Assembly (NCBI GenBank): GCA_008632985.1
Contig: QPGO01000037.1
Coordinates: 372,001-436,000 of the forward strand
Source of the DNA: Psammoneis japonica
Lineage: Eukaryota
Length of the DNA stretch: 64,000 bases
Direction of reading: 5' to 3'
The translations under genes and the position numbers were made by a program. Every line of letters starts with the position of its first letter. The stretch's first letter is position 1. This document shows, piece by piece, positions 873 to 32,120 of this stretch. The notes beneath the pieces were generated by a model. That model saw nothing but the letters and a program-made list of their open reading frames with translations, had not been told where the DNA came from and searched no databases.

Positions 873-1729
873 AGTCTCTCAGGAGATGCAGCTGAGCTTG
901 CAATCGGATTGGTGGAACACAAGACCACTGCTTGTGCCTTTGAACTCATGCTTGCTCTGTTCCCCAAGTCGTGCAAACGCCATGCCACCCTGCTTGGGCA
1001 CTGCTCTGTTTTTCTGGCAGCAGCCCAGTGTGGCAACCATTCCAAGAACCAACAGACGGCTGTCATTCTTTATGACCTTTGCTCAGGGAGTGAAGGTGAT
1101 GTTAACTTGTTTGCATTGTCCTGCAATGTTGCCCCGCTGTTCAACATTGTCAACCAGACCAAGCTTTGCTCCTTCCATTGCAAGTGCGGATGTGGAATCC
1201 CACAAGATCCCAAGTGTGCCTTGAGCTTTGAAAAGCACAATGGCATCTGCAATTGGGGAGACACAGCTCATCTCAAGATGACCCACTTGGAGAATGCAAC
1301 GTTGCTCCAGGATCTTGATCCTTTCTTGTCTCCTCATGTTTTGGTGCTTTGACTCCAAAGTTCTTTGGTCAATCCGAAGTTGAATCTGTTTCTGTGACTC
1401 TTCAAGCAAACTGGGGAGTGACAGGATTTGAACAGGATTTGGGTGCGCGCGAAATGTCGCACGCTGTTTAGTTCACCGCGCACAGTTTTGTGTGCTCTTC
1501 AGTTCTGCGCGTGCGTGCGATGCAGTTTGCTTTCGAGCCACTTCTGCTCACAAGAATGATGACAGCAGCCCGATTGTGCCAACTTGCACATCTTTTGGCT
1601 CCTGTGACGGTCTCTGAGCGGAGACTCATCTGCCATTTAGACAGCAGCAAGGAGTTGTTGTTTGAATTCTTGCCGTTTGCCTTCAATTTCTGTCAGTCCA
1701 CCCGAATCACAACAAACCCTTCCACATTG

Positions 1730-2480
1730 ATCATGCAAGATGGAAAGCTGGTGGTGCGTTGGTCACAGAAGCTCAGTGCAGCGCAGCAAAATCATTCAGC
1801 CATCAAGAAGGAACTTCTCGGGGCGGCAATGTGTTTCAAAGAATTCCGTTCTATGTTGCTTGGAGCTGATTGCGCTGTTTTGCTTGTCACAAAAATCTCA
1901 CCTTTTGCATGTTCAATTCTCAACAAGCACTCAGGTGGAGGCTCTTTTTGGAGGACTTTGCTCCAACTTTTGAGCATGTTGATGGCAAGGACAACCTGTC
2001 AGCAGACTGCTTCTCGCAATTGCCACGCATGGATCCACCAATGGAAGGGAAGTGCACTCCAAACAAGGACAAACTGATAGATTTCAAGGCGATTGACACT
2101 GCCATGTTGCCTCATGAAGAGGAACTTGACAACACAGACTGTGTGTCTTATTTTGCCTGCTGTCGTGAAGAGCCATCTGAGTTCCATTGTTGATGATCCT
2201 GAGCTGTGTGAATCATTCTTGAACTGTCCCTCACTTGATGAAATGCAAAACCCAACAACCATGCAACAAATCCAGGAGCATCAATTTGTTGATGTGGAGC
2301 TGAACAACATGCAACAACAATGCCCGGAACAATTCATTGTTGAGCATGTGAACCAGCGTCCTGTGATTTGTTGCCATGCTCATCCCAATGTTCCTCCAAC
2401 ACAGTTGAAAATTTGCACCCCTCTGCTGCTTTGTTGCATGATGTGATCCGATGGCATCATGGGACATTGGGACATGTCTT
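1730..2480 (+). pseudogene. Ty3/Gypsy pol relic: RNase H end, linker and start of the integrase H2C2 zinc finger
   Basis: Frameshifted motifs SQKLSAAQQNHSAIKKELL..MCFKEFRSMLLGA, HKNLTF, ALRWRLFLEDF..TFEHVDGKDNLSADCFSQLP and IRWHHGTLGH match the Gypsy consensus (AQxNYSxxEKELL, TDHKNL, RWxLxLxxF, IxYxxGKxNxxADxLSR, WYHxxLxH). Confidence 0.85.
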
Positions 2481-2858
2481 CTGCATGCAGCGCAGAAAGT
2501 TCAACGCTCTTGTCGCTTTTAAAAAACTGTCTCTTCACCTTTGTTGTTGAGCGCATCGTCACCAAATCCATTTGCAATATGCTTCGAAGCAAACACACCC
2601 AGCTGGTGTGGATGGATCATCTCGATGATTGCCGCGAAGAGCTGGAGGACACGACCCCCAACTTGCATCAAAAGCAGCGTCAAGCGTGCTCTGCTCGGTG
2701 GCGCAGGCCGCGATACTACAGCCACAGGAAAACATACAAAAGCGTGCCATTCAGGAATACACCTTTGGAAAGTGTTTGACTTATCCGGTGTGACGACTTG
2801 ATAGAATAACTTGTAGTTTGAGATTCTACTTCCCTACGGTTAACTGACACACACTGGA

Positions 2859-4784
2859 TTACTCGTTTTGACGAAGCGCTTTCGCAATAAGAACCTTCTC
2901 TTCATTGCTTGGTGGGCTTGAGCCTTCCATAAGCATCATGTAACAACCGACAGTTGCAGAGAGCGACTCTTGTCGACCTTCCGTTGCGAAGGACGGCTCT
3001 TCCACGAACTTTTGAATCACTGGAAGAAGAGCTCTCGAGCAAGGTCGCCTCTTCCGAGGTGTTGGCTTTGCAACGTCGCACCAAATTTCCAAAACATGAC
3101 ATGACCATATGACGGATGATGAAATCTCAGGCAGCGGCTTGCTTGTCAGTCGATTTAAGTGCGCGACTGCTGTACCCTGAATTACGTCACTAGTTATCAA
3201 CTCATGTTGCAGTAGGGTTGTATCGTCCGCTGATGACAGAACTGCGACGAGTGCTGGTAACAATGACGCCGTTGCTGCATCTATATCATCACTTTGTGAT
3301 TCTATCTGAGTGAAGCGAAGAGCCGTTTTGAGCGCAGTCAATGTTGGTTCCACCTCGTGCGGCAAATCTTCAGTCATTTCTGGTAGCAAAGCACCCATAA
3401 CACGGCATGAACAGATGCTGACGGTGTCGCACTTGTGACTCGTTGACTTGTCGTCAAAGAGTAACCAGTACTCAAGCGTGGCGTGGAGAGCATCCCTGAG
3501 GGAATGGCGCACATGAAGCAAAGAATCGGGATTCAATGGCAGCACCTCACCACCACGTTCTTCAATCTGTACCAACTGAATCATAAATTCCATTGCAGCC
3601 ACTATTATGCGACCACACGCTTCCACAATGACAAAAGAATCACCTGTATCAGAAGCGTCGTTGTGTGGATGTTGCTCCAGAATTAAACCAAGCTGAATTC
3701 GCCATTCTCCGGAGGCCATTCTCAAAAGCCCACATACACTTGACGCACGACCCAAGTCTCCGGATGAAGATGCGCTGACAAACAACCATTCCCAGCCACA
3801 TTGGTCTACAAGAGATCCAAGCACTTCCCACGCCATGGCGCGTCGTCCTCCAACTATGGGGGTGTGTTTCCCAGAATCCTCTTGTGTCGCCACCGTTGCA
3901 AAAAGTATCTTAATAAGTGATGTGACAGCCTCGCTGTTCCTATCGTTCAAAAGCCATTGAGAAAAGGAGACCGACAAAGTTTGTGATGATGCTATGGCGC
4001 CGGTACATGAAAGAACAACTCCATACCAATCTGTTGTCGTCGAACCAGTCTGCCCACAAACGCAAAACTTGATCACCAGCCCATAAAATTCCGGGACTTC
4101 ATTGTTGTGTAGGCATACAATAGAGCCATGTCGCTGCATCACAGAAGCAACAGTAGCATTCCATTGGTCATCCAAACTCGCACTCTGATCGTGAGTGTAT
4201 ATCGCCTCAAGAGTCTCTCTCACGAGCTGCCAATCGCTTGAGCCTGGCTTAGATGTGAATCTCGCAGTATCTATTGCATTCTTCCCCAATGTCCGAGTTA
4301 TCTCAAAGCGATGCCAAATGCTTGAGATGGCGCACTCGACCGTTTTTGAAGCGCCACTGTTTGTTTTCTGTAGGAGAGAGGCGTCCAAACAATCACCCAT
4401 GGTAGAGACCAACTCCACGTCCACAAGTTCCACCTGTGCGCAGTCCATGCGAACCTCCAATGCTCGCACGAGAGCTTGCAAAAGTAATTCTAACTCGTCC
4501 TTGTCTTTCAGCCACTCAGAGGAGCATTTGGAAAGAAACGCAAGCACGGCCCGTACAAACATTGATTCATAATTTTCACCGCCGCTCGCAAGAACGCGAA
4601 TCACAAAGGCGTAAAGGACTGGATATGACTTACATAGCTCGTTCAGTCTATTGCTATCCTGAACGCGTGTAAGGAGCACCACAGAGACCATAAGCCGTTC
4701 GCTCGAGAAATCGGAGCCAGCAGTGTCCTTCTCGAGGCCCTGCAACAGCGCCTCCACCTTGCGGACAAGAATAGTATCATCCAT
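2859..4784 (-). CDS. Neurochondrin-like ARM-repeat protein, single exon
   Basis: Intact ORF of about 640 aa. Segments ERLMVSVVLLTRV, FVIRVLASG, LLRMASGEWRIQL, VRHSLRDALHATLEY and SCRVMGALLPE follow the order of neurochondrin-family blocks. Confidence 0.6.
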   Translation of the reverse strand: MDDTILVRKVEALLQGLEKDTAGSDFSSERLMVSVVLLTRVQDSNRLNELCKSYPVLYAFVIRVLASGGENYESMFVRAVLAFLSKCSSEWLKDKDELELLLQALVRALEVRMDCAQVELVDVELVSTMGDCLDASLLQKTNSGASKTVECAISSIWHRFEITRTLGKNAIDTARFTSKPGSSDWQLVRETLEAIYTHDQSASLDDQWNATVASVMQRHGSIVCLHNNEVPEFYGLVIKFCVCGQTGSTTTDWYGVVLSCTGAIASSQTLSVSFSQWLLNDRNSEAVTSLIKILFATVATQEDSGKHTPIVGGRRAMAWEVLGSLVDQCGWEWLFVSASSSGDLGRASSVCGLLRMASGEWRIQLGLILEQHPHNDASDTGDSFVIVEACGRIIVAAMEFMIQLVQIEERGGEVLPLNPDSLLHVRHSLRDALHATLEYWLLFDDKSTSHKCDTVSICSCRVMGALLPEMTEDLPHEVEPTLTALKTALRFTQIESQSDDIDAATASLLPALVAVLSSADDTTLLQHELITSDVIQGTAVAHLNRLTSKPLPEISSSVIWSCHVLEIWCDVAKPTPRKRRPCSRALLPVIQKFVEEPSFATEGRQESLSATVGCYMMLMEGSSPPSNEEKVLIAKALRQNE

Positions 4785-5047
4785 TGCCGATTCTGTGCTA
4801 CTTCCTACTTCCAGCAACGCGTTTCTCTAATTTGAAATTATCTCATTAAGTTCATAAACCTGTCTGTCTCTGATTCTCAGGCGCTTCTGGTGAATGCAGG
4901 TACTTTCACCGGTGCAACAAATTGAAAATTGGAACTAATGAAATCTCCTCATCGCATCATGCATCATGCATCATGGTCAACACTCAACACCCAACACGCT
5001 GGTCGCGTTCGAGGTCAGAGGAAACAACTCGGTTGACGGACGGATGG

Positions 5048-5357
5048 TGATAGGAAATGGGTAAGAACTGGGTACTCGCCTGAGAGTGTCTTGGGTGATC
5101 AAGTCCGTGCACTGACAGGAGAGAGTAAGCTAGAGCCTAATCTAGAAACAGTACCTTGCGATGATGCTTTGTCTAGAAGTTGTGAGAGATTCTGAGCTAG
5201 TCTCAGAATCGACATGGCTGTCAGAACGGATAGATTCCGACAGGTTGTTGAAACACTCCGAAAGATCAGTGAATTTCAGTCACAAACCCGACTGAACACA
5301 TGTGCTGTCTTCGAACATGAGGTTCCAACATAAAAGGGTCATGTGGGATCCCTGTCA
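5048..5357 (-). repeat. 3' LTR (310 bp)
   Basis: Direct repeat of 12630-12939 with 10 substitutions and no indels, from tgatagg to cctgtca. Confidence 0.97.
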
Positions 5358-5370
5358 CCCCCCTTGAACC
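5358..5370 (-). other. Polypurine tract
   Basis: Minus strand GGTTCAAGGGGGG directly abuts the 3' LTR. Confidence 0.8.
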
Positions 5371-5394
5371 AAATGAGGGAAGATGAGAAGGGGC

Positions 5395-8300
5395 TCATGA
5401 CAGCATGTGTGCAGGCAGGCGCCACAGGACACGGTCGACCATGACCCAAATTTTGTCTGCACATTGAGTTTTGGTGAGGCAGTCCGCCAATTGACTTTCC
5501 GCGGGAACCCAAACAAGCAAGTGATGACCGAGTCGCTGCCCTTCACGGACATGTTGGAAGCGTCGCTCAACATGTCGGGTTCGTCAAGTTTGTTGGTCGT
5601 TTTGGGCCATTTGGACTGCGGCTTGGTTGTCCAACATGAGGATTGTGGGAGTGGTGGACAGTCGCTGGGAGTCAATGGAGCAGTGGCAAGTGCCAAGGAA
5701 GGTGAAGTCGTGGGCCAACATGCGCAGGTGAGCGACAGCCACAGCGCCAGTGCAGGCTCCCATCCACTCAGATTCGGCAGTGGACATTGCGACAGGGGTT
5801 GGGACAGTGGAATTGGCTTCCACTGTTGCCCCATTGAAGCAGACCATAAATCCAACGGTTGACTTGGCGGTGTCCGGACAATCCTGCCAGCTGGCATCGG
5901 TGAAGACCACAAATTCAGAATGACTGATGTTGTGAGCTTCGCAAATCGCGTGAACAGGGCTCGCGGTGGGATCAGAATAAAATTTGATGGCGAGGTCTTG
6001 ATGTTTGCGGAGACAGCCAAAAAGGTGGACGAGAGCATCAAAATCCTTCATGCCAGGGTTGGTGCAAGCCTTTGCAAGTTTGCAGGTGATCCAGAGAATG
6101 TCAGCGCGAGTGTTGCAGGCGAGATAAAGGATGGAGCAGACAGCGGATCGAAAATGGAGACCAGGATGCTTGTTCGCGATTTGCTTGGATTCGGCGGTGT
6201 CCTTGGGTTGATTCGCTTTGGAGTGCACATGGTCAACGGGGGCTGGGGCATCCTGAAAGCTGGGGCTGCCCCAAGGCGAGATGGGAGCAAGGAACCGCTT
6301 GAGGAGATTGCGCACATGTTGATGTTGGTCGAGAGAGAAGGAGCCGTCGGAATGTCGGTGAATGCGCATCTGCAAGAACCAGGCAACGTCACCGTTGAAT
6401 GTGATGTTGCACCTGGATCGTGTGAGATTCTCAAAGTCCTTTTCGACTCTATCGTGAGACCCAAAGTAGATGACATCATCCGTGTAGAAAATGAGCTTGA
6501 GATGTGAGCCGTCGGGGAAGTGCTTGGCAAAGAAGGTGGGATCTGCCTTGGAATTGGTGCATCCTTGGGCAAGCAAAAATTCGGAGAGCTCGGTTGACCA
6601 CCAAAGACCGCTGCGGATGGTCCCGTGCATGCCTTTCTTGAGACGGAGGGGTGCACCAAAATATTCAGCAAATTCAGGAAAATGTTGCTTCAGAATCGGG
6701 TCGAATCGAACAAATGGGCGGCCGCGAGCGGGGGCTTGAAGGCAAGCACCGACGAAATCACCATTCTTGACGTGTCGTTTGGCCTTTGCTGCAAAAGCCA
6801 GGAAGAGCTTGATGGCACGAGAGGATGCGTTTGGTGACCAATTGTCGTCATCGGCTGATTTGCGTTGCATGTCGCCGCGCGCACAGTGTCGAGCCTTGAG
6901 TTTCTCCAGAGAGCCGTCGGATTTCTCCTTGGCACGTAGAGCAAGTGTGGTGCCGATGATCTCATCGTCTGGACGGGGACATTCATGAAGAGCAAAAGTT
7001 CCATTGTCCACGATGAGGTTCTTGAGCTCAGATCAGACGGCACGAAGCCAGGCATCGCGAATCGCAGGAGGTTGTCTGAGGATGGCTCGAAAAGAGCGGG
7101 GAACGGGTGAGCAGTCATCAATGGGAATTGAAGAGGTGGCCTGGACGGCTTCCAAGGCCTGTTGCAAAGGATCCGGGCATTTGCACCAATTGCAGTCAGG
7201 CCAAGGAGATTTGACGGAGGCGCTGCACGCAGATTCCATGGCGAGCGAGTCGTCGAAGAGAGTTTGTTCGAGGAGATTGACTGGGGGAGTGGAGGAGGTT
7301 ACAGCGTAGAGTTGCTCCTCGTCCGCGAAGCGTGCGGAAGTGCGGAGGCCAGCGTTGGTGCGAGTGGATCGTCTGAGACCGGTTGTAGCGGGTGCAGGGG
7401 ATGGTGGCGCTGAATTGGATTCATCGGATTCCGGAGGCGCTTCGGTGAGAGTGGAGGAATGAGGGGGTGAGTCAACGTCAAGGAAATCTTGAATGGCACC
7501 CGCATGTTCATCCACCGGAATCTCGTCGCATGTCTTGAGGCCAGAGGCGTCGTTGGAGATGTTCCGGATCGGGAGTGCACCAGAGAAGGGGACGTGGTCG
7601 TGCACGAGTGATGATTCGAAAAGTTCGTCGAAGACAGCATCATGCGCTGCAATCAGATTCTTGGTGCCGATGCCCTCAGGAACATGGATGAGGCAGCCAG
7701 CCTGGTTTGGTGCGAAACCTACATGAATGCCACGAGATCGACGTTGAATCTGTTGTTGGGTGGTGGTCGGGCAACGAGTTGCCGGGTTGAGAGGTTGGCA
7801 TCTGTCAAAAGTGACGGGACATCCAAAGACCCGAAAATTGCCAATCTTTGGAAGTCTGTTGAATGCATGGCAGTGCGGTGTAGCCAGGGAGCCATCAGGG
7901 AGCCACGTGCCTTTGGCTGGGAGAACATTCAGGATGGCGACGGCATGGACAAATGCATGATGGCAGAAGTGTGCCGAGAGTCGTGCGTTGACAAGGAGGC
8001 AACGAATCATCCGGCTTGCGACTTGCCACATGCGTTCCGCGACCCCGTTCTGCTCCTGGTGACGTGGAGCGGCAACATCGACCTTGATTCCATTGTCTTC
8101 ACCAAAGGCAAGAAATTCGGAGGACAGAAAGTGTGTTGCGGAGTCCGCGCGGATGAAGTTTATTTCTTGGATTTGTCCCTGGGATTGCACTTCGGTCATC
8201 CATGATTTAAAGGCGGCGATGATGTTGCCAGATGATGGGCTCTCGAGGCCACGAACACCGCAGTGGTGTCCTTTGTGGGTTGCCAAAAAGAGGTGGCAGG

Positions 8301-11300
8301 GAAAAGACGTTTTTGGGGTGAGTGCGACTGTGTGAGGGTTGGGAATTATGTCCACAAACACACGTGAAAATGTGTGTGTTGGTTCAGTTGGGTCACACTT
8401 GACGCGGTTGCGCTTTCGGGAGATGGCGATGCGCGCGTTGTCGAGACAGTCGTCAGTCCCGGGGGCAACATGGCAGTCGCGCCAAACTTCGCCAACTGTG
8501 CCCGCCAAAAGGCTCTGAGAGGAGCGACAACCGAAATGGCGACCTGCAAGGTCAAGGTCGATTGCATGTGTCGTTGGTTTCGATGAGCCTTGGGCGTCGG
8601 TTGCTTCCGTCAACGGGAGGTCGGAAGTGGGTTCCGGTTCTGTGGCAGCTGTGACATCGTGACAGGAGCGCCTGTGACGGAGAATCGGGAAGCTGAATGT
8701 GTGTCCGTCGCCAAAGTCAAGTGTCGTGATGTTGGCAGTGATTCGGACATTGAAGAGTTCATTGGCCGTGAAGGAGGGTGCCGAAAACAAGTTCCGGTTG
8801 AGGCCGGGGATGCAATGGATGCGATCGAGAACAAGGTTGACCGGATGTCCTTGGTCGTCTTGAAAACGGAGGGTGACGGATCCAACTTTCGTGGCATGAA
8901 TGGTGGTGCCGTCTGCAACAACAACAGGGACGTGACAGGAGGTGCTGTTGTCAAGTGAGTCGTGACGAACGAAATGGGAAGAGGCACCAGAGTCGACAAA
9001 CCAACTGCTGATGTCCGTGAGGTCGGAGTCGCGGGGCAGTTGGTGAGGTCGGCACTGGTTGGGATCGTCGGCCATGCAGGCAATTTGAACGTGACAGTCA
9101 GCGGTGTTGCATGAGAAACGGGGGATGGTGTGGACCACATCGACAGAGTCACAGCTGAGATCAGATGTGATGGAGTCGATGTCATCGTCAGAGATTGCAG
9201 TGTGCCCGGATGCGTAAGATGCCGTGGTGAAAGCGTCGTGGAAGTCGAAGCAGACTGGTGATTCCTCGGGAGAGTTCCCGGGGGGCGGTTCATCAAAAGG
9301 GCAGGCCGTGGCATCATCCGGTTCGCATGGGCGACGGACCAAAGACGGCACAGTGGATGATGATTCCGTGCTGGAGTCGCAATCATGATGTTCAAGGGGC
9401 GGAGGACCAGCAGAGTGCGAGTTGGCGGAGAGAGTGTCGTTGCCATCAATCGAAGAGATGTCATCGAGGAGGTCCTGGAGAGTGATGGCAGGCACAGTTC
9501 CATGAGTGGAGGAAGATGCGATCGAGTCACTCGTGGAGCAGCAGGCAGATGAGTCGTCATCAAAGGAGACGTGGCGTGGTGCCAGGGTTGGGATAGAGTC
9601 GGAAGAGGAGGGACAACAGGAGTGAGTGTCCTCCATGTCAGCTCGAGTAGCGCAGAAAATGATTTGGTCCTTCCGGGGAGGTGCCTTTGCGCGGCAGTGC
9701 ATGGCAGGTGCAGTGGCTGCGAGAGTGGTCTTTTTGGAGTCCTTGGCAAGTTCGGGACAGTCGGGACAAAGGTGCCCCTTTTTTTTGCATTGACAGCACG
9801 TGACTTCGCTGAGGTCGCGAGGAGGTTTGGTAGCAGGTTGATCTTTGGGTGTGCCCTGCTTCAGATCACGGAGCCGAGAGCGACAGACGGAGGCGTTGTG
9901 GTTGCGTTTTCCACAGCAGTCGCAGATCTCGGTTGCGTTAGGTTGGTTTGGGCGACGGTGCTGCTGTTGCTGTCGTTGTGCATTCCGAGGAGTGCGTTTG
10001 ACGGTAGCAAGGTGAGCATGGTTGTTGTGAGAGCGGGAGCGGGAGCCATGCGAGAGCCGATCACGATGCTGTTGGTTGTGATGCTGCTCGTCGATGTCAT
10101 AAAACGTTTGCCGGATGTCCTTAAATCGAGGAGCGGTGGCAGAGGAGAGACGAGCAGCAGTGCGAAATTCGGATTCGAATTGCTTGATGGCAGCGTCGTA
10201 GCGGGGATGGCTGCCCATTTGGCCGAGAAAATGGGCACTGACATCCGCATCAGTCTTGACGGGAAGGCCGGCGTTCTTGTAGCTCCGGAGTTTTCGTTCA
10301 AACCGTTGGATGGAGCTGCTGGCGGACTCGTCCGAGTTGCGAAAGACTTGGAGGTAGTCGTTTGAGCAGTGGTTGCTGTGTTCCTGAGTGATGGGCGCAC
10401 AGCGTAGCTGGAGTTCTTCGAGAGCAAGTTTGCCGGAACGCGATCCAAGGTCAGAAATGTCAGATTGGTGCGTTGCGTCCACATGCGTCCAGAGGAGAGC
10501 ACAGAGGGCGCTGTTGGCATGGTCTGGAAGTGGGCGGAGAGGGACAGAGGGAAAATTATCGAGCACACCATTGAATTCCGGAAATGATGCGAAGGTCCCA
10601 CGTAAGTCATTCAAGAATGCATAAAATTTTTGTCGTCGTGTGTGCGGATTCTGATGGTGCTTCAGAGTGCGCAAATTTGTGTGGGATGCATGCTTCATCA
10701 GTGAATTCGACAAGGATTCCGAGGTGCGCTCGCTGGCGACATGAGAGAAAACAGTGTCGTCGACTGATGAGTGGTGGGCGGACGGGCAAGCGGGGTGTGG
10801 TCGTGGGGTGAGGGCAAGGCAGAACATGAGTTCCAAGTAAAGGGACTCGGCTTCGCGCATCATGTCCTGAAAACGACGAAGTGCTAGAGTGCTTGCTTCG
10901 CAGGCAGGGTGTCGACGAAGGAGGTGCTCGAAAGACGTTTTTGCCGAATCGACAGTGTCGCGAAGCTCAACGGCACGTTCATTCTCACGATGGAAAAACG
11001 GTGCAAGAGCTTGTTGGGTGTCGAAGAGAGCCTCGAAGGTGACGAGACGAACCTGGACGTTGATGTCTTGGTCGACGGATGGGGCAGATGCGTCAGAGGT
11101 GTCGGGCGAAGCTGGAGAAGGTGAGTCGACTGCAGGAGTGTGAGCAGGAGAGGCAAGAGCCTCATCAAGTGCTCCATCCATTTCGTTTGACATGGGAGCA
11201 ACAACATCAAAAAGCGGTGTCGCGGAGGTTGATGACGGGTCGACATGGGAGAGAGCAGGAGTGGCTTGATCCGTTGGAGATGAAAGCGGGGGGAATTCCT

Positions 11301-12471
11301 CAGGGGACCCCAGTGGTGCAGTGACAGTGGGAGTGGGTGGCGGGTCGTCAGCAATGGGTTGAGACCCCCCTTGAGCTGATGCACCGTGCTCATCGTCGGA
11401 GTGTACGGTTTCAACGGTGACATAGATGAAGTGATCCGAAGAGGGGTGCGGAGGCTGCTGCGGGCCACTGTCTTGACACTTTCTTGTTTCAGGCTGAAAA
11501 AAAAAAAAATCAGCGTCTGGATGATAAAAGGGTTTAGAGCGGGACATGCCGTGGCGGAGACGGTAGGATCGTAGGGCATGGTGTTCCTGGTTGGGAGTCA
11601 TCCGGAGTGATTTCCGCGAGCGTGAGTTGGTTCGACGTTTTCGGGGGCGCGGCCGAGAAAAGTGAGCAGAGGGCGCGGGGTCATCGCGTGCGGAAGGTTT
11701 CGGAATGCGGTCATGCAAAGTGTCCAAATCGACATGTAAAATGTCAAGGGATGTGTCGACATCTGTCAATTGGTCGTGGATCGCGCGGTCACAGAGATTG
11801 TGCTCGGGGTCGAAAAACTCGGATTCGTCGTGAGTGGCTTGATCCAATGACGTGTCAAGTCGAGCACGAGAGTGCTTGATGACGCGAAAGTTGGAGTAGA
11901 GCTTTTCAGTCTCGGGTTGGAGACGATCAACGCGGGCCTGGGCCTGAGCAAGACGTTCGCTGAGAGCGGCGCGGACGCCAGCTTTGACACGAGAGAGACG
12001 GAGCTCGTCAGGTGTAGGCCGAGCAGGAGCCGGGGTGCGTTTGACCGAAGCAACAGAGCGACGAAGAGCGCGTTGGGTACGATGGCGAGCGGTCTTGGTG
12101 CGCTTGCGAGTCAGCTGCGAAACAGCATGAAGGGTCCTGGGCAAAGTGACGGGTTTGCCGTTGCGAAGGCCACGAACAGATGAGCGAACACGGCGCTCAA
12201 AATCCACAGTGTCGGTAGAGCTAGAGAGCGTGCGGTGGATGGCACGTTGAGAGCGACGGGTGGAGACCTTGTTGTGCCTGGGGGCCTGCTGCGAGGGCTT
12301 GGAAGGCGGCTTGGAGCGTGGCGCAGATGTGCGCTTGATGCAACGGGTGGTGGGGTGGTGCACGCCCTGGGTCACGCGACGAGAACGACGACGACGTGCG
12401 GTGTACATGCCAGCATGCTGGACAATGGAGCCAGCATCAACATTGTGACAACGGTCACGAGGGTCGGCCAT
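5395..12471 (-). pseudogene. Single-frame Gag-Pol polyprotein with two in-frame TGA stops (7033-7035, 5584-5586) and many Tyr-to-His/Cys changes; start codon uncertain
   Basis: ORFs 7033-12684 and 5584-7011 and the tail to 5395 share one frame. The stops sit at Arg positions (WLRAV*SELK, QT*RTRHVERRF), consistent with CGA-to-TGA. Confidence 0.9.
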
Positions 12472-12611
12472 GGGGACGTCATCGACGGAGCGTCCGTGGA
12501 CCGTAAAAACTTCATGCGAAGAAAGTGCGTGCGAAGACGGCTTGGGAGAGGAAGCATTGCGAGACGCATGAGCAGCGCTCGGCTTGAAAGAAGCGGTCGT
12601 GTTGGACTGAA

Positions 12612-12629
12612 CCGGAAGCATTGCAACCA
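12612..12629 (-). other. Primer-binding site (priming tRNA not identified)
   Basis: Minus strand TGGTTGCAATGCTTCCGG begins immediately after the 5' LTR, and TGG is complementary to tRNA CCA. Confidence 0.7.
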
Positions 12630-12939
12630 TGACAGGAAATGGGCAAGAACTGGGCACTCGCCTGAGAGTGTCTTGGGTGATCAAGTCCGTGCACTGACAG
12701 GAGAGAGTAAGCTAGAGCCTAATCTAGAAACAGTACCTTGCGATAATGCTTTGTCTAGAAGTTGTGAGAGATTCTGAGCTAGTCTCAGAATCGACATGGC
12801 TGTCAGAACGGATAGATTCCGACAGGTTGTTGAAACACTCCGAAAGATCAGTGAATTTCAGTCACAAACCCGACTGAATATATATACTATCTTCGAACAT
12901 GAGGTTCCAATATAAAAGGGTCATGTGGGATCCCTGTCA
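12630..12939 (-). repeat. 5' LTR (310 bp), retains the TATATATA box at about 12879-12886
   Basis: Direct repeat of 5048-5357, from tgacagg to cctgtca. Confidence 0.97.
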
Positions 12940-13101
12940 GATGGTCATTCAGGGCAATATGTATGTGGACAGAGGTTTCTGTCACAAGTCATCAGGGCAT
13001 AAGTCTTCTTTCCCGCGCTTTTCACTGTTTCACATCCACATGCCCCCTTTTATTCTGCCAAGTCGTCGGGAGCCTTTTCGTTGTGAATACACCTCGACAC
13101 C

Positions 13102-13775
13102 ATGAGAAACCTACATGACGTGTTACAGTGCCTGGTTTTGCTTATCTTGTTGCCGTTTGGGAAGGCCTTGAAGCTCAAATCACCAGCCTTTTCAGATGGA
13201 GAATCCATTCCGCCTCAATTCACAGCAATGGGAAGGGATGTTTCGCCTCCTTTGCAGTGGAAAAAAGCTCCACAAGGAACGACAAGTCTCGCACTTACTG
13301 TGGATGATCCTGACGCGCCAGTGAGTTTCTGCTTTTGTAATACCGTCTGCCGGTGACCCGCACGAAGCATGCCCCTGTTTTCTAGCCAAACTGAGAGCAA
13401 CAGAGATTTGGTCTCATGTATTTTGAATTTCTTTTCATGTTTCAATTACTGTAGGATCCAGAACATCCAACTCGCGTTTTCGTTCACTGGGTGTTGTACA
13501 ATATCCCTTCTGATGTTCATGAACTGCGACAAGGGTGTTCAGCAAATCAGGGAAAATGCAAAATCCCCGGAAGCGAGGGGCTAAACGATTGGAACAAGGT
13601 TGGATACATGGGTCCAGATCCCCCGATTGGTCGGCATCGATACCATTTCACATTGTATGCGCTCGACAAGGCTTTGGATGAATTCAGTACTCCTCCGACA
13701 AAGTTTCAATTACAAGCTGCCATGGAGGGACATGTGCTTGGAGAAACTAGATTGATTGGCACCTTTCAGAAGTGA
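13102..13775 (+). CDS. PEBP / YbhB-YbcL family protein with signal peptide; intron 13321-13454
   Basis: Motifs LKLKSPAF, SPPLQW, LTVDDPDAP|DP..FVHWVLYNIP and GYMGPDPPIGRHRYHFTLYALD. A GTGAGT...TAG intron joins the frames. Confidence 0.93.
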
Positions 13776-14389
13776 ATCAAACTACAGTCTACCTGCTACA
13801 TAAAGTACACATCCGATTATCGAAAAGTTTTTTGCGAGATCAATTTAGAATAGGCTTTATTTCTATAGTAAAAATGGATTTATCAAATCTCAAGCGCAAC
13901 GACGACTGGAATGCTATTTGTGGGCGCGCGGGGTGTAGCAAGTAAACGCTGAGAAGGTGCTTGTCTATTCATCCTTCTCCTCACTGATTCGCTGGATTGG
14001 GGTGGTATGCTATGGTTCGATCTCTTGAGGAGGTTCGACAGAAGATAAGAATCGACATTTTTCTAGAGTCCGGGAAGATCTCTAAGGTTACCGTATCACC
14101 AACCGAGGAACTTCAGTGTATGATCACTTGCACTAACGAAACAACATGACACCGATTCAGTCGAAGTATTCGACAACGATGACACCAAAACATCCAAACA
14201 TCACACCGCAAGCTGGAAGCAAACTCAAACATAGAAGTATTTACGCCATCAATCAGCACTCTAAGCTTCTCTTTTCTTTAGAGAGATCCTATGGTCAAAC
14301 GCTGCTTTGTTTATCGAATATAGTGTCAAAATGGAGGCCTAGCTAACAGCGTCGTTGTAACGAGTAACGAGAGACGAAAAAAACAGACG

Positions 14390-17877: not shown

Positions 17878-18668
17878 TGTAGTGCTTTCTTCAAATAATA
17901 GTATAGTCTAGCTACTGCCTTTGCACGCAAGAAACACGAAAAACAAAAAAAGGTTAGAACAAAGTGTGTGCTGTGTCAATCACACCACACGCAAACGCAG
18001 TGTTGACACGATCCCCGCGCGACTCTGCGCGTACGCGCGATGACAGGCAGCTACACGTGTTTCTCGTAGGATCGCACGTAGACGATCTTTCTCGAGCAAC
18101 CATGATGGACGCGGTGCCGGAATCAACAATGTCCGTCCAATTCACATTCAATCCATCAATGACCGACACGAATCAATCAACCAAAGGCATATACAATACG
18201 GCATGCGGCGCAAAGAGCAACAAATGAACGACATGGAGCGTCCTCACCTGCAGGGAAAGGATGTCTTTGTGATTTCGGCGCGGTGCGAGTTATGTGTGCC
18301 GTGCTTTGCCAGCGTGGTTTCATGCGCTTTGATTTCACGCACAGAAAATACAGCTTTCACGTATGTAGGATATACGTAGATTCGATACCAATTCCAAAGA
18401 AATCCACGTCAACCTGATCTGAAGACTCTGAATAAAATGACGGAGGGAGTTCGCCTTCGCGGCGTAGAATCCTACGTCAAACCTGGTACTAACTGCATTC
18501 GTTCTTCGATTTTCGAAAACGCTCGCTCCAAGCGCGGCTCTCCGGTCTTGCCTCCTTCGCAAAAACAGAACAACAAATCACAAAATCAACAACAACAACA
18601 TCAAGTACAAGTAGTCCATGAGTTCAACCAAATCTTATTGTTCATAAGGTGCTTATCCTAATATCATC

Positions 18669-19664
18669 ATGGACGACAGAGACGATCCATATGACGTCTT
18701 GGGCGTTTCCAGAGATGCGTCCGAATCTCAAATCAAAGCAGCGTATCGAAAACTCGCGTTGCGTCATCATCCCGACAAGCAAACCTCAGAAGCGGCCAAG
18801 GCAGAAGCGACGGCTCGTTTTGCCAAAATTAGCAACGCGTATGAAGTGTTAAGTGATGTAGAACGACGACGTGAATACGATTCGCCTCGTGCGTTTCGAC
18901 ACGACCATGATGGTGTTTTTCGTCACTCGTTCCACGATCCGTTTTCCGTCTTTGCTCAAGTCTTTGGAGAAGAGTTTGGTTCTGTTCCTCGTTCTGGCTC
19001 GCGTCGTCGCAGTACTGATCCTTTCCAAGACACTTTCTTTCAGGATCCATTCAATGTAGGAGGAAGTATGTTTGGGGGTGGAATATTTGGTAGTGGCATG
19101 TTTGGAGGAAGAAGCATGTTTGATCAAATGGACCAACAAATGAGACAACACGAGGAAATGATGCGTCGAGGCCAGAACCAGTCACAGTCCGGCAATTACT
19201 ACTATTCTAGTAGCAGCAGCAGTACTTTTGGAGGAAACAGAGCGGGCGAATCTGTCACGACAAGCACTCGCACGATTAATGGCAAGACTCAAACCGTGAC
19301 TGAGCGTGTCATTACCAAACCAGATGGTACGGTCGAGCGCCATGTGGAAACTTCTGGGGACGAGGACTTTCCTGCGCAGATTGATCATCCCTTTTTCAAT
19401 CAGTTACCCAACAGCAACACGAACCATCGTCAGTTGGAACACAATGCGACCGCTCCTCAGGAAGAAGCGGCAGGCGCACCCAAGAAACGACGATTCTTCA
19501 GTAGGCGCAGTTCCAAGAAACATCATGGCGAAAGAGACGATCCTGACTCGACGGGTCAGTCGGGCCCCCATCATCACGATATTGAATATTGCTCTCTATT
19601 ACGAGAATTGTACGTTTTAGGAAGCTCACCCATGCTGTCGAGGAAGTCTATACTTAATTTTTAG
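18669..19664 (+). CDS. DnaJ/Hsp40 protein (DNAJB6/8-like); 3' end uncertain
   Basis: J domain DPYDVLGV...YRKLALRHHPDK...AYEVLSD, an FxDPFxVFxxVFG motif, a G/F/M-rich linker and an S/T-rich beta region. Confidence 0.92.
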   Translation: MDDRDDPYDVLGVSRDASESQIKAAYRKLALRHHPDKQTSEAAKAEATARFAKISNAYEVLSDVERRREYDSPRAFRHDHDGVFRHSFHDPFSVFAQVFGEEFGSVPRSGSRRRSTDPFQDTFFQDPFNVGGSMFGGGIFGSGMFGGRSMFDQMDQQMRQHEEMMRRGQNQSQSGNYYYSSSSSSTFGGNRAGESVTTSTRTINGKTQTVTERVITKPDGTVERHVETSGDEDFPAQIDHPFFNQLPNSNTNHRQLEHNATAPQEEAAGAPKKRRFFSRRSSKKHHGERDDPDSTGQSGPHHHDIEYCSLLRELYVLGSSPMLSRKSILNF

Positions 19665-26613: not shown

Positions 26614-27590
26614 TTAAAACTCAATTCGCCGGAAAACAGCAGAAGACTGTCTGGGCCCATCTCCTAGGTTGCCCACCAAGTTCCAACCAGTGCCCCATAG
26701 AGAGCCATCTGTCTTGATAACCATGGAAAATGAACAGCCAGTTGCACAGAAGGCAACGTCAGACATGATCATCTCAAATTTTTGAACCCCGTCGACTGCA
26801 GTTCCGAGTCCAATGGGCCCACTTGCCCCAGCCCCCCACAACGTTCCATCCTTCTTTATCGCTGGAGTATGACGACCCCCTGCTGCGACTGAAACAACGT
26901 CAGTCAGGACATCCACTGGATCGAAAATGATGTTCGATCTCGTACCATCACCGATCTGACCACTGCCGTTGGCGCCCCAACCTGCCAGAGTTCCATCTGA
27001 TTTCACTGCCATGACCCTCGCACTCGATGTCACAACTGATGCAACAATCTCCAACAGCTTTGCCGGAGTTGACACCTCTGCTTGGTCTGGGTCCACCAGG
27101 AAAACGCCATATAGTTCATTTCTTCCCATGCCCAACAGAGTTCCATCTTTCTTCAGTATAAATGATGCTGAGTCGCCCGCAGCTACTGCGCCTACGTTTG
27201 ACATTAGCTTTTTGGGCACTTTCGCCTGCCATAGCGTCGCATCCGTTTTCACTGTTAATGCGTGGTATAAGTGCCAGCGGAAACGGCGGCAACATCACTC
27301 ATAATTTGAGTTGGTTTCAACCTCCTGATGTTGCTTCCATCACCGAGTTGATTGCTCACGTTCAAGCCCCAACCCCACAGGGTGCCATCCTTTGTGATTG
27401 CCATGTTGTGGGATTCACAAGCAGATGCTGATGTTGCGTTCGACATGACTTCCACTGGGGAAAGACGACTCTCCTCAGCTGTTCCGTCTCCCAAGTTCCC
27501 ATTGTCGTTGTTGCTGGCGCCACATAATTTCCCGTCAGACTGAAGAATCATGGAGCACCGATTGCCAATCGTGACTTGAACTGTTGTCAT
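26614..27590 (-). pseudogene. RCC1/BLIP-II repeat beta-propeller, intronless; frameshift near 27265; 5' part TpA-eroded
   Basis: Repeats of VxAGxxHxxAIKxDGTLWGWGxNxxGQLGDGT in ORFs 27255-27731 and 26614-27252. Confidence 0.88.
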
Positions 27591-28329
27591 CCGCTCTCCT
27601 TTCTTCTTCTGTCTTGACAAACCAGCATCGGCGAAACGCATTGAGGTTCTAGCTCTTGCATCAATGAATGCTTTCAAGGTGACCAAAAAACAACTGCAGC
27701 AGCCAGCAAAAGAACAAAAGATGCACCACAATCAACTTCATTGTTTCATTGTTGGCCTGCTGACATGCTTTTGTCATTGCAATCTCAGCACAAAAAAAAA
27801 AGGGTGTTTTTCACTTGCCAAGACTTGCTCACACTTTCCCCCTCTCATTGTCATGAGAGTTGATTGTTGAATCAACAATTGCAATGGACCAAGAGTTGGT
27901 TTGTCACCATCATCGACACACCAAAAGATGTGATGCCTGGGATGTTCAGGAAATTTTGACGGGTTTTTGTGGCGTGCACTTTGCACCCACAGAACCTGTG
28001 CTGCCGCCACTCATGACAAATCAATGTCAATGTGTGAGCTTCATCAAAGGTGGTAACAGTGGTTTCCACTTTCCTTTGTAAATTTTTTAATGTGCGCTGT
28101 TAAAATTGTTAACAAGCAGAATTTAAAAAATGCCAGAAAAAGTGCTCAACAAATTGAAGCCCTTTTTTGCATTTCATCTGATGTCCCAATGCCTTTTCTT
28201 TCACAAGCTTCAATCAAATGCATGCAATGTTTAATTTAATTGGAATCAAAATCTGTTTTTTGTGATGCATGGTTTGGTTTCCTTTGGATCTTGATCAATT
28301 TGAACTTGGTTTTGACTTTGTCCTCCTCA

Positions 28330-28760
28330 CTCATGTGCATGTGTCTTCGCACTTGTGCAGTCTGCAGCACTTCACGCACACACGTGACCCACCACTTCTC
28401 TTCATGTTTCCCAGATTTGCACAGCCCGTTGGTCTGCGGCGTCTTCAGTGTGTGTTTTACATGCACAATTTTCCACACATTTCACAACAGCACACCCTCT
28501 CCCCAAAGTTTGAAAAACGAGAGCGTGCGCTGTTGTGATTGACGTGGATCCTGCGTGTGGTTGCAAATCTGCAAATCGACAACCGGCCATGGTGGTGAAA
28601 GACTTCACCCCATTGGCCAATGACAGCAGCTCAACATGCGGTGACACCTGCCATCCTTCTGGTTGGTCAAGATGGGGTTTTATTTGGGCACAGCTTGAAT
28701 CATGTGATCTCAAGTGTGCTGTCATGAATCTGCCACATCCAGAATGCTGAGCTGCTGGCG
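28330..28760 (-). pseudogene. Possible AlkB-like 2OG-Fe(II) dioxygenase relic
   Basis: FMTAHLRSHDSSCAQIKPHLDQPEGWQVSPHVELLSL aligns without gaps to the AlkB F..Y..I..HxD...P.I..LSL block. In another frame, KHTL and WWVTCVR (R-x5-R after reverting TGG to CGG) follow. Confidence 0.4.
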
Positions 28761-28869
28761 TGTTGTTGTGTGTTGTGTGCACGCATGTCACAAACTTGCT
28801 TTTCTGCAGTGTTGTCATAATCGCGCATGTCAGAGTTTTGCATCCAGAATCATCATGAGCCACCATGAA

Positions 28870-29152
28870 TTGCGCTGTTCAAACAAGGCATGTGCAAAAA
28901 GAGGTGCATTGGTTTTTGATGCATTCGCTGACAACACATCCATCTTCTCCAATTTCCACATCCAGATCCAGAAAGACTCCAGGCGGTGCTTGTTCCTGCA
29001 GCTCTCAGAATCACACACATGAGGAGTTCTTTGCCACACACAACACTCTTCAAAAAAGGCATGCACAAAAAGAGAGCTTCACTTGTTTTTGATGTGTTCA
29101 CTTGCGTTGCATCCATCTTCTCCAATTTCTGTGTCCAGATCCAGAAAGACTG
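28870..29152. repeat. Direct duplication of a block of about 105 bp
   Basis: ...aaggcatg[tg/ca]caaaaagag...gatg[ca/tg]ttc...catccatcttctccaatttc[caca/tgtg]tccagatccagaaagact occurs twice. Confidence 0.85.
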
Positions 29153-29299
29153 CAGAGGCAGAGAGAGGGGAGGCAACCCATTGGAGATTGCCTGAGTTGT
29201 TGGGCTCATTTTTAAAGGCTTCCCAAGTCTCTCCACTGTTTGTGGTCAAGAGCAGGGGGGGTCGACTACAACAACTGCAGCAGCTGCCAATTCCATGTC

Positions 29300-30135
29300 G
29301 ATGGGTTGGGAACCAGAAGCAGAAGCTTCTGAACTGGCAGTGGTGGATGCACCTGCAAGCCCACGTTGCAGTTTCAATTGGTTGCTGTTGTTGTCCTGCA
29401 CTTTCTCACAAAGCATTTTACATTTCTTTGCAATGAACAAGGTGGGTCAGAGCAATGTTGCTTCACATGGTCCGGAATCAGCTTCGCAGGGTCGGGAACC
29501 GGTGGCAGAAGCAACCAAATCTGCCAAGGCAGATGCACTGGCAAGTCTGCATTGCGGCTTCAATTAGTTGCTGTTGTTGTCCTGTGCACTCTCACAAAGC
29601 ATTTTGCACTTCTTTACAATGAACAAGGTGGATCAGAGCAGTGTCACTTCACATGGTCCAGAATCAGCTTCGTGGGGTCGGGAACCAGCAGCAGAACCAA
29701 CCAAATCTGCCGCGGCAGATGCACCAGTGAGTCTACATTGCGGTTTCAATTGGCTGCTGTTGTTGTCCCGTGCACTCTCACAAAGTGTTTTGTGCTTCTT
29801 TGCAACAAACAAGGTGGATCAGAGCAGTGTTGCTTCACCTGGTCCAGAATCAGCAGCATCGATGCACTGGCATGTCCATGTTGCCATTCCTCTGGGTTGT
29901 GTTGGTTCATCTGTGCAATGCTCTCACAATGTGTTTTGCTCGTTTTGGCAATGAATGGAGTGAAACAGAGCAGCGGCACTTCAAACAACAAAACGACAGC
30001 TCAGCGGCACTGGGTGCACTGGCAAGTCCATGTTGCCTTTCCTGTTGGTGGTGTTGGTTCATCCACACTGTGCTCTCACAACGCATTCTGCACTTTTTTG
30101 GCAATGAACAAGGTGGCTGCAAGCAGCGGCACTTG
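29300..30135 (+). repeat. 186-bp tandem repeat (3 copies plus 2 shorter diverged copies), each an exon-plus-intron module
   Basis: Anchors at 29355/29541/29727 and 29431/29617/29803. Each unit has a donor-like site, a ctcac branch-like motif, a pyrimidine tract and AG, then VDQSSVTSHGPESAS..EPAAEPTKSAAADAP. Confidence 0.8.
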
Positions 30136-31269
30136 ATGAAAGTGAGCTGCAACTGCTGCTGCAGACTCCAGGGTGTTGTTTCCGTCGGCGTCATTCAATT
30201 TAAATGTGGACAACAAAGTGGAATGTTCATGGTGCAGTGCAAATGATTTTAATTCACAGGTTTTGCAGGGATGGAGGGTGGGCACTCTCACAGGGAAAAC
30301 ATGCCCCTGTTTCTCAGTGAAAAACATTTTTTCTCATGGAGAGGGGGGTCTGATCCCACAGCACAAAAATGTTGATCTGTCACAGTTGACATGTCATTGC
30401 CAGCTGCACAACTGACAAGGTTTGAAACTGTAAAAAAATCATCCACAAAAGGAACAAAAATCACAATGAAAAGATGTGTGATGATCACTGCATTGCGTGC
30501 TCTGATGTTGTTGCCAAAGAATGACAGAATGCTTCAAAAGAGCAACAAATGTTCATTTTCCATTGCACCACCAACTTTGTAGCATCAACAGGCCACTGGG
30601 CATGGCAGATGAGGCAGAGTTGAGAGGCTCATCATTGAGTCATCTTTCAGGCTGCATGGTTGCTGGTGTGGGTGGCAATGACATGCCATGGCCAGAAGCA
30701 GGTTTTGTGCATGTGGCCATGATGGAAGCCAAGGAAGAGGAGGCAGTGGTGACAGTGATGCAAGACATGGCTGAGTTGATGGTCACAATGTCACCAGCAT
30801 GGATGCTCAGAGAGAAGTTGTCAAATGTCCTGGCAGATGGCAGATTGAGATGACCGCAACAGCACAGTCATGGTGAATGACAAAAACTGCATCACCACTC
30901 CACCTGAGATGCACACCACTGCCAAGCTTTTTCTTTGTGCCAGTGCTCTTTTGTGAGATGCACAGCAAGAAAAATGTTTTTGACAACCATGATGAACAGC
31001 TCCTTGACTTGCAGGGGACAATGCAGCACTTTTTGCAAACAAGCAGAAGCAGGGCTCTTGAGGGAGCACACACAAAGTTGGAAACAAATGAACAGATGCT
31101 GCACTTGTCAGCTCAAAAACAACAGCCCATGAAGCAACTGTGGCTCAGCAACAAAACAGCAGCAACACAGAAACAAAGGAACACAGAGAGTCAAAGCAAG
31201 CAATGGCTGCACATGCCTTGAGCGATTGTTGCAAAGCAGCATTGCAGCCCATGTTTATCCTGAGTCCCA

Positions 31270-32120
31270 ACCACCAGCATTGTTGATTGTTGCATTTCAA
31301 CATGTGCAAAAGGAGAAGCAGCAACTGTCAAGATGTGCAGAGCAGCAAGTCTGAGACACCACAGAAGCAATGGGAAGAGAGAGAGAGTCAAAAAAATTGC
31401 CACTCATGCCTTGAGTGTTGTGAAGTGGCACCACCATCATCATGCCATCCTGATCACCAGCATTTTTTGTTGTTAAATTTTAACCATGCAAAGGAAAAGT
31501 GGCAAATCTCAAGAGATGGAGCAGCAAATCTAAGACACAATGGAGACAAAGGGAACAGAGAGAGTCAGAGCAATGCTCGATCACACCTTTGGCACCATTT
31601 TGAAGTGGCATTGCTGTTGTCACCCCATTTGATGCCATCTTTGATGTTGGCCCAAATGATGCATTGTGCAACACCTGAGCCACACAAGAGGAGAAATGGC
31701 AAGTCTTGGAAACCACAAAAATGAAGGGAACTGAGAGAATTAAAGCAACAGCATGCACATCTTGAGTGTCACAAAGTGGCAACCTCCAGTGTTTTTGATT
31801 GTTGCATTTCAACATGATGAATCGCACAGCACATGAACCATGAAAGAGCAGAAATGGCAAGTCTTGGAAGCCACAGAAATGAAGGAAATGAAGAGAATTA
31901 AAGCAATGGCTGCAGTGTTGCAGTTGCACATGTTCATCCCAACCATCAGCCAGCATTTCTGATTATTTCATTTAAACATGGTGAACAGAGCAGCACCTGA
32001 ACCAGGCAGAAAAAAAGCTGGCAAAGCTCAAAACCACAGAAATGAAGGGTGGGGAGAGAGCAAAAAACCGGCTGCACACATCCCTTGTGCTGGAACTTGT
32101 TGAGCACAGACATGAAAGCA
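31270..32120. repeat. Degenerate tandem repeat, about 5 copies of roughly 160-200 bp
   Basis: The motifs aaatggcaagtcttggaa.ccaca.aaatgaagg..agagaattaaagcaa and gattgttgcatttcaacatg recur. Confidence 0.7.

Follow-up and report, generated by a model that had tools for sequence, protein, structure and literature searches.

A probable TpA-specific hypermutation acting on a young Ty1/copia retrotransposon in the diatom Psammoneis japonica

The window analysed here is a 64,000-nucleotide stretch of Psammoneis japonica DNA (assembly GCA_008632985.1, contig QPGO01000037.1, positions 372,001 to 436,000 of the forward strand). It contains an almost intact Ty1/copia retrotransposon on the minus strand, whose TpA dinucleotides are the subject of this report. 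Two long terminal repeats (LTRs) of 310 bp each, located at 5048–5357 and 12630–12939, were delimited by direct-repeat search and compared position by position; they have TG...CA ends and align without a gap. On the element strand, the window-left copy is the 3′ LTR and the window-right copy is the 5′ LTR. The pentamer GATGG is present at both outer ends (5043–5047 and 12940–12944) as a 5-bp target-site duplication, and the element is therefore a single clean insertion. The primer-binding site (12618–12629, minus strand), which starts with TGG, directly follows the 5′ LTR, and the polypurine tract, AAGGGGGG on the element strand (5358–5365), is directly upstream of the 3′ LTR. A frame of about 2375 codons spans 12711 to 5584. 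Its first part (7036–12629) encodes gag with CCHC knuckles, protease (Pol_BBD) and integrase, and its second part (5584–7032) encodes the reverse transcriptase (RT) and RNase H, recognised as RVT_2. The sole interruption is one in-frame TGA at 7035–7033, between the integrase and RT parts. This TGA cannot arise by a change from TA to CA or TG; decay of CGA or TGG, or programmed read-through, has been considered as its origin.

The two LTRs differ at 10 of the 310 positions (3.2%). All differences are transitions, there are no indels, and at every one of the ten sites TA on one side is paired with CA or TG on the other. The sites, given as left/right positions, are 5051/12633, 5062/12644, 5073/12655, 5163/12745, 5297/12879, 5299/12881, 5302/12884, 5304/12886, 5307/12889, and 5329/12911. 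The left (3′) LTR has TA at the first three and CA or TG at the remaining seven (5163, 5297, 5299, 5302, 5304, 5307, and 5329), and the right (5′) LTR has CA at 12633, 12644, and 12655, in its interior-proximal U5 end. An asymmetry of three to seven sites is not statistically significant (P = 0.34). The seven sites of the left LTR comprise three of the T/C type and four of the A/G type, so that both strand types occur, interleaved within 11 bp; the three changes of the 5′ LTR belong to a single strand type. In the densest cluster, the left LTR reads CACATGTGcTG and the right LTR TATATATAcTA. A transition between TA and CA/TG is possible at only 73–77 of the 310 positions, and the probability that ten out of ten differences fall there by chance is approximately 5e-7 to 9e-7, allowing transitions only. 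All nine LTR CpGs are identical between the two copies. Realignment thus reproduced exactly the ten differences, their coordinates and the TA versus CA/TG pattern reported in an initial annotation of this DNA, and its further statements, that no CpG differs and that T-to-C and A-to-G changes occur within the same LTR, hold as well.

Logan contigs from three runs of one sample were aligned to window positions 4000–13999, and 834 contigs were placed. The word depth is about 60 in the flanks and about 200–960 in the element, and the family is therefore multi-copy. In the flanks, contig pieces of depth ~60 agree with the window except for 0 and 1 letters, and the piece with one deviating letter also carries a 7-base insertion; 241 of the 834 placed contigs match the TA-poor element at 99% or more. 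One contig of depth 24, with 6 ambiguous letters, represents the empty site: it joins 5042 to 12940 and skips 7897 bases. The insertion is therefore heterozygous or polymorphic, and hence young. Since it is young, an LTR divergence of 3.2% can hardly come from ordinary mutation, which would not be limited to one dinucleotide either. Other contigs have internal joints at 6569–10171 and 7493–11195 that skip 3601 and 3701 element bases, and some copies of the family seem to carry internal deletions. We found no second LTR copy or copia remnant within the window, and a metagenome scan with an invariant 27-base stretch of the LTR gave no match.

Among the named relatives of the RT, Fragilaria crotonensis proteins are the nearest, with 40–45% identity, and the best unnamed matches reach 52%. 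A host DnaJ open reading frame (ORF) at 18648–19664 has named relatives that are all from diatoms (37–57% identity). By this evidence the host is a diatom without close representatives in the databases, and not Bigelowiella. The element shares the gag-protease-integrase-RT order and the RVT_2 domain with the CoDi-type Ty1/copia elements of diatoms. It differs from them in being the only member poor in tyrosine. Its Tyr content is 0.7–1.0% (1.0% in the RT part), that of the 49 homologues from the first search is 3.5–6.3%, and that of 146 further representatives is at least 2.1%, which makes at least 2.1% for all 195 relatives. The purge of TA is therefore lineage-specific and not a property of the copia family.

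The element interior contains only 47 TA in 7272 bp, corresponding to a TpA observed/expected ratio of 0.13, at a CpG ratio of about 1.0 and a CpA+TpG ratio of 1.18–1.44. For comparison, the TpA ratio is 0.54–0.69 in the LTRs and 0.58 in the host-like parts of the window. When the interior TAs are sorted by codon phase, 18, 11, and 18 are observed against 127, 81, and 130 expected, an approximately sevenfold depletion in each; as the three phases are affected equally, codon usage is not the cause. No TAA or TAG occurs in frame in 2375 codons, and the in-frame stops are TGA only. Given that the interior CpG ratio is about 1.0 at a TpA ratio of 0.13 and that the LTR CpGs are unchanged, the loss of TA is separate from, and faster than, CpG decay.

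Two other blocks of the window are poor in TA. The left block (1–2520), which is cut by the window edge, has 10 TA, with TpA ratios of 0.06–0.27 and CpG ratios of 0.45–0.67, and holds a gypsy-type RNase H fragment (1472–2077). It also contains a 42-nt tandem array at ~278–823, in which single columns mix CA, TG, TA, and CG among the copies. The second block, of about 15 kb (27300–42080), is nearly devoid of both TA and CG. Between 28001 and 42000 there are 49 TA (observed/expected 0.05) and 107 CG (0.14), with CpA+TpG at 1.7–2.0. TA-free runs in this block extend up to 2180 bp, and its right edge near 42.08 kb is sharp. Its sequence is complex rather than repetitive, and resists annotation. 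A Pfam scan of 40 ORFs in 26.6–42.2 kb and two in the left block recognised nothing except an RCC1-like gene on the left margin of the large block, and a homology search with the largest ORF of this block gave no homologue. A mobile or viral insertion that has decayed completely may account for the block. Among the tandem and dispersed repeats within the TA-free blocks, the commonest class of difference is the CA|TG double, for which a TA and a CG ancestor are indistinguishable. In the window, the footprint lies in the copia element, the block with the gypsy-type RNase H and the ~15-kb block, where 40 ORFs and one homology search revealed no recognisable gene, at a TpA ratio of 0.58 in host-like DNA; conversion appears to be restricted to mobile or unannotatable blocks. 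Arranged by their TpA/CpG ratios, the copia interior (0.13/1.0), the left block (0.06–0.27/0.45–0.67), and the large block (0.05/0.14) form a graded series, which suggests that TA loss precedes methyl-CpG decay. Methyl-CpG decay likewise makes CpA and TpG from a symmetric YpR dinucleotide, and it is seen in the large block. It does not fit the LTRs, where all nine CpGs agree, or the TA-poor interior with its normal CpG ratio, and as the source of the LTR differences it was rejected.

The direction of change in the coding region was polarised with an outgroup of 32 diatom-type RT homologues. At the ten columns where Tyr is conserved in at least 70% of them, the element has Tyr three times, His four times, and Cys, Phe, and Trp once each; the catalytic Tyr of FYTDD is among the three that are retained. 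At the 284 columns conserved in at least 60% of the homologues, the element differs in 76, of which single-step changes from TA to CA/TG explain 9.5 and the reverse changes explain none. RT residue 268 (6230–6231, minus strand) is Tyr in 30 of the 32 homologues, is encoded by CAT (His) here, and by TGT (Cys) in six sister contigs. An ancestral TAT was therefore lost independently in both directions. As judged by this outgroup polarisation, the change in the coding region runs from TA to CA/TG. The initial annotation had proposed A-to-G change at TpA; the coding interior bears this out, and at the ten LTR sites the direction is only inferred. An alignment of the protease-integrase part with 12 long homologues has 94 conserved columns and no conserved Tyr, and is uninformative in this respect. 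At RT residue 238 (window position 6320), 28 of the 32 homologues have Arg, the sister copies have CGA, and the codon here is CAA (Gln). The element copy therefore also carries CpG decay, though the LTR CpGs all agree.

The variation between this copy and its family was followed in the contigs. Among the 40 variants listed, out of 804, none lies at the ten LTR sites and 39 are interior sites at which this copy stands against every contig. The latter comprise 10 CpG decays, 4 changes from CA to TA, 2 from TA to TG, 3 CA|TG doubles, 6 transversions, and others; they fall in 36 codons, 11 with synonymous and 25 with nonsynonymous differences, and look neutral. These contig data were not used for polarity, because recurrent TA loss makes a majority rule unsafe.

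The anatomy of the LTR hits is described with TA taken as ancestral at all ten sites. On this premise, each LTR started out with 19 TA, of which the 3′ LTR lost seven and the 5′ LTR three, with none lost in both. About 10 of the 38 TA copies (26%) have been converted, and the conversions form two or three local patches. No TA that was hit changed a second time or ended up as CG. Hits are clustered among neighbouring TAs, with seven adjacent pairs (permutation P = 0.0002). The three hits of the 5′ LTR are the TAs closest to the interior (U5), and six of the seven hits of the 3′ LTR lie 28–60 bp from the interior (U3). The same TA sites are unchanged in the opposite LTR, where they face host DNA. 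It is suggestive that the inner-LTR hits and the purged interior form one continuous domain that matches the transcription unit of the provirus, although only two or three independent patches are involved. In U3, the 5′ LTR retains TATATATA at 12879–12886 and an adjoining TA at 12888–12889, a candidate TATA box. In the 3′ LTR, TATATATA has become CACATGTG, an example of how a TA-rich promoter motif is lost.

The hits also have a sequence context. The base 3′ of the edited A is a pyrimidine in nine of the ten hits, compared with 33 of the 66 unedited strand-sites (Fisher P = 0.02). RTAY, which is susceptible on both strands under this rule, makes up 389 of 1379 TAs in host-like DNA, 4 of 47 in the copia interior (P = 0.002 vs host), and 0 of 52 in the large block (27301–42080; P = 7e-8 vs host); in the left block (1–2520) it makes up 3 of 10, too few for a test. 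YTAR, which is resistant on both strands, climbs to 27 of the 52 TAs in the large block. The class of TA that varies between the LTRs (TAY) is therefore the class that was purged over the long term, which fits TA loss and contradicts TA gain.

We consider it likely that these features reflect a host-imposed, TpA-specific hypermutation that converts TA to TG or CA on chromosomal mobile DNA in this diatom. The initial annotation had proposed that the mutations arise once the element is inserted, on either strand and at TpA alone, and this is the best reading. It also took repeats to be the target, which may or may not be so. The change would be A:T to G:C at the A of 5′-TpA on either strand. A young, polymorphic Ty1/copia insertion, with LTRs identical at integration, would have undergone local TA conversion afterwards. 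The same pressure over the history of the family, filtered by selection for function, would have removed about 87% of the TAs expected in the interior, replacing Tyr with His or Cys across the coding region and leaving the catalytic Tyr. In dead elements nearby, the process would be complete: no TA would be left, and a separate methyl-CpG decay would have removed CG as well.

The spectrum, symmetry, clustering, context bias, and long-term footprint of the changes, and their direction in the coding region, are shown by the sequence itself; the chemistry behind them may be adenine deamination. In the scheme we prefer, the A of TpA would be deaminated to inosine by an ADAT/TadA-like deaminase and then fixed as G, with transiently single-stranded patches of DNA as the substrate. 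Mispairing after the T in TpA has been oxidised, or biased repair, may serve instead, and the data do not separate these chemistries. The process would serve as a defence. A change from TA to CA or TG never makes a stop codon and removes TAA and TAG; therefore, the frames of targets remain open, and long spurious ORFs build up in them. As no stop codons are created, inactivation would proceed via missense changes (Tyr to His or Cys, Leu to Pro, Ile to Thr or Met) and via the loss of TA-rich promoter motifs.

A spectrum of this kind has a precedent in the rhizarian alga Bigelowiella natans, as described in a 2026 preprint (Mettrop et al., bioRxiv 10.64898/2026.01.13.699255), which reports TpA hypermutation of integrated DNA of nucleocytoplasmic large DNA viruses (NCLDV) and virophages. 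In mutation-accumulation lines, two integrated viral regions received 231 of the 302 nuclear point mutations; 230 of these 231 were A to G or T to C, and all 230 were at TpA (10.64898/2026.01.13.699255). Not every line showed the changes, whose rate was ~6e-7 per site per generation, and the de novo events in cultured lines occurred at approximately 1000 times the background rate; a single-copy NCLDV region was among those mutated (10.64898/2026.01.13.699255). The authors propose an ADAT2/3-type adenine deaminase, and their Discussion notes that ADAR and ADAT favour U 5′ of the edited A (10.64898/2026.01.13.699255). The remark in the initial annotation that no characterised system has this spectrum is thus outdated, since the preprint reports exactly this spectrum de novo. 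The figures given there (211 events, 6169 TpA, 3132 line-generations) correspond to ~1e-5 per TpA per generation. At this rate, a 26% loss of LTR TA takes ~3e4 generations, which is compatible with a still-polymorphic insertion.

The two systems appear to agree in that TpA changes to TpG or CpA only, on both strands, locally in foreign or mobile DNA, and in an episodic or patchy manner. They also agree, as far as the available text goes, in the long-term TpA depletion and CpA/TpG enrichment, which include RT- and DDE-bearing genes. They differ in host (a rhizarian there, a stramenopile, the diatom, here), in kind of evidence (de novo mutations there, an LTR pair and composition here), and in target (a single-copy NCLDV region there, a multi-copy LTR retrotransposon here). 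The depletion is deeper here (0.03–0.13 vs 0.45 in the NCLDV region), and the TAY preference, the inner-LTR geometry, and the co-located CpG decay seen here are unreported in the available text on B. natans. Under the cluster rule of the preprint, all 15 one-kb windows of 27001–42000 qualify, the windows of 1001–3000 qualify as well but are just two consecutive ones, and the copia interior qualifies on TpA alone. The available text of the preprint names no diatom, stramenopile, LTR, or retrotransposon (10.64898/2026.01.13.699255). Our literature searches gave no report of TpA-directed hypermutation in diatoms, and the B. natans preprint was the sole work with a matching spectrum. It is probable that the diatom case is a second lineage, with a new class of target, of the B. 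natans type of TpA hypermutation.

Several points weigh against a hypermutation of TpA. At the ten LTR sites the change from TA to CA/TG is favoured by indirect lines, not by other copies of the element. If TA was ancestral at all ten, the LTR had a TpA ratio of 0.78 at insertion, compared with 0.58 in host DNA and 0.13 in the interior; therefore, selection on LTR motifs is needed, such as the candidate TATA box or four CTAG motifs. Of the 39 interior sites listed, 4 are CA in all contigs and TA in this copy, and 2 are TA there and TG here. As far as 40 ORFs and one homology search can tell, nothing recognisable as a mobile or viral gene lies in the ~15-kb block. Finally, all runs derive from a single sample and could be the very reads from which the assembly was built, which leaves the base calls without independent confirmation.

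The alternative that fares best reverses the polarity at the LTRs and resembles the repeat-induced point mutation (RIP) of fungi. CA/TG would be ancestral at all ten sites, C-to-T change at CpA on either strand would have made the TAs after insertion, and the TA-poor element would have some other explanation. The differences between two sequences are symmetric in this respect. The implied ancestral LTR ratio of 0.42 suits the TA-poor interior better than 0.78, and the four listed sites that are CA in the contigs and TA here point the same way. The interior argues for the opposite. Change from CA/TG to TA at the rate of the LTRs (10 of 104 target copies) predicts ~125 new TAs in the interior, where only 47 exist (P ~1e-15), and if the changes were random ~4.6 in-frame TAA or TAG, where none is seen (P = 0.01). 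The first test depends on the LTR rate, whose lower 95% bound gives 58 TAs under RIP-like change (P = 0.075), a value that is not clearly excluded and that counts against our preferred polarity. The outgroup steps (9.5 TA losses and no gain) and the TA ancestor of residue 268 are further evidence for loss. Old blocks are free of TA rather than rich in it, and the TAY class that varies between the LTRs is the one absent from purged DNA. Under RIP-like change, the hits would sit at the two outer ends of the LTRs and not form a continuous domain. The host is a diatom, and to our knowledge RIP is known from fungi only. Altogether, we regard the RIP-like polarity as improbable.

Fungal RIP proper is like the process considered here in being a dinucleotide-specific, clustered transition hypermutation that affects both strands of chromosomal mobile DNA. 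It differs in that CpA changes to TpA, which leaves a TpA excess and nonsense codons, in contrast to the TpA deficit and the lack of TAA and TAG here. RIP is commonly recognised by a TpA/ApT index of ~0.89 or more and a (CpA+TpG)/(ApC+GpT) index of ~1.03 or less. The two indices are 0.19 and 1.36 for the whole element and 0.13 and 1.37 for its interior, opposite to both thresholds. With TpA/ApT at 0.13–0.19, no TAA or TAG, and named relatives of the DnaJ and RT proteins that are all from diatoms, fungal RIP was rejected.

Editing during retrotransposition, in which a deaminase would act on RNA or on single-stranded cDNA after strong-stop so that the LTRs were already unequal at integration, is very unlikely in our judgement. 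The reverse-transcription scheme suggests that editing at a single-stranded DNA stage could make the LTRs unequal, and the three changes of the 5′ LTR do share one strand type. The 3′ LTR, on the other hand, has three and four changes of opposite strand types interleaved within 11 bp. Edits made in RNA would appear in both LTRs. Vegetatively growing B. natans acquires this spectrum in its chromosomal DNA (10.64898/2026.01.13.699255), and dead blocks in the window are purged nearly to zero. APOBEC3 (G to A) and ADAR (A to G) leave a comparable deaminase-type transition signature on retroelements. They differ in being strand-biased, acting on cDNA or RNA in replication, whereas both strands are affected within 11 bp here and the LTRs are unequal. 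With both types interleaved in one LTR and no single strand type, replication-stage APOBEC/ADAR editing was rejected.

A basecalling artefact, caused by a modified base at TpA (for example, N6-methyladenine or 5-hydroxymethyluracil) in silenced DNA that a long-read basecaller misread, has a marginally smaller chance still. The runs, all of one sample and possibly the source reads of the assembly, leave room for it, and 34% of the sampled words of the stretch are absent from run X1. The contigs speak against it, since those of depth ~60 reproduce the flanks and 241 of all 834 placed contigs fit the TA-poor element. The TA loss has a selected coding outcome, in that the catalytic Tyr is kept, the frame is open, and the domains are recognisable. 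At residue 268, the sister copies have the other possible product, TGT. A purge that is 87–97% complete would also lie well above the usual rates of miscalling.

UpA avoidance occurs in RNA viruses, and the element, being nearly intact, has been under selection; even so, the idea that the family avoids UpA/TpA to evade an RNase or a TA-reading defence, with the LTR differences as ordinary mutations, is hardly credible, as ordinary mutation would not yield ten out of ten TA versus CA/TG differences with none of nine CpGs affected, selection cannot keep TA at 0.05 in dead, unannotatable DNA from which CpG has gone, and the copy-versus-family differences (11 synonymous to 25 nonsynonymous) look neutral.

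Returning to TpA hypermutation, a broader version may be entertained as a tentative possibility. A DNA adenine deaminase of the TadA/ADAT type, with a preference for T-A-pyrimidine, might be an ancient defence common to the stramenopiles, alveolates, and Rhizaria (SAR). It would treat the provirus from U5 to U3 as one domain, disable its targets by Tyr-to-His/Cys-type missense changes together with the loss of TATA-type promoter motifs, and leave active families to escape by being nearly TA-free. In this broader version, the targeted domain equals the transcription unit, hinting at targeting that is guided by transcripts or coupled to transcription.

So far, one rhizarian alga is the only organism for which TpA-specific hypermutation of invading DNA has been reported (10.64898/2026.01.13.699255). 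If the diatom case is true, its much deeper footprint would show that the process either is widespread among marine protists or recurs in them, and that retrotransposons are also among its targets. A second host would open a comparative route to the enzyme, by way of deaminase or base-modifying genes that are common to both hosts; candidates would be missing from diatoms whose copia elements have a normal Tyr content. The LTR pair would serve as a natural clock and as a map of targets, in which the clustering, the T-A-pyrimidine preference, and the inner LTR ends can be read. For annotation, it should be noted that purged regions lose all TAA and TAG and accumulate long spurious ORFs. Dating by LTR divergence would badly overestimate the age of insertions in such genomes.

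Three other genes or ORFs of the window border on the TA-poor blocks or have a repetitive composition. An RCC1-repeat gene in two overlapping frames lies at 26614–27731 (minus strand), at the left edge of the TA-free block. Its upstream part (27255–27731) is already poor in TA, with 6 TA in 477 bp. The process may spread into a host RCC1 gene, or the RCC1 gene may be part of the insertion. A 655-codon ORF at 2859–4826 (minus strand), with no Pfam match, is located between the left block and the copia insertion, and the TpA ratio climbs from 0.27 to 0.54 across it. A 754-codon ORF at 56182–58446 (minus strand) has SAP domains and a strong strand skew. It contains arrays of 18-nt and ~135-nt tandem repeats (57365–58009 and 56279–56906, respectively), and is probably a host repeat protein.

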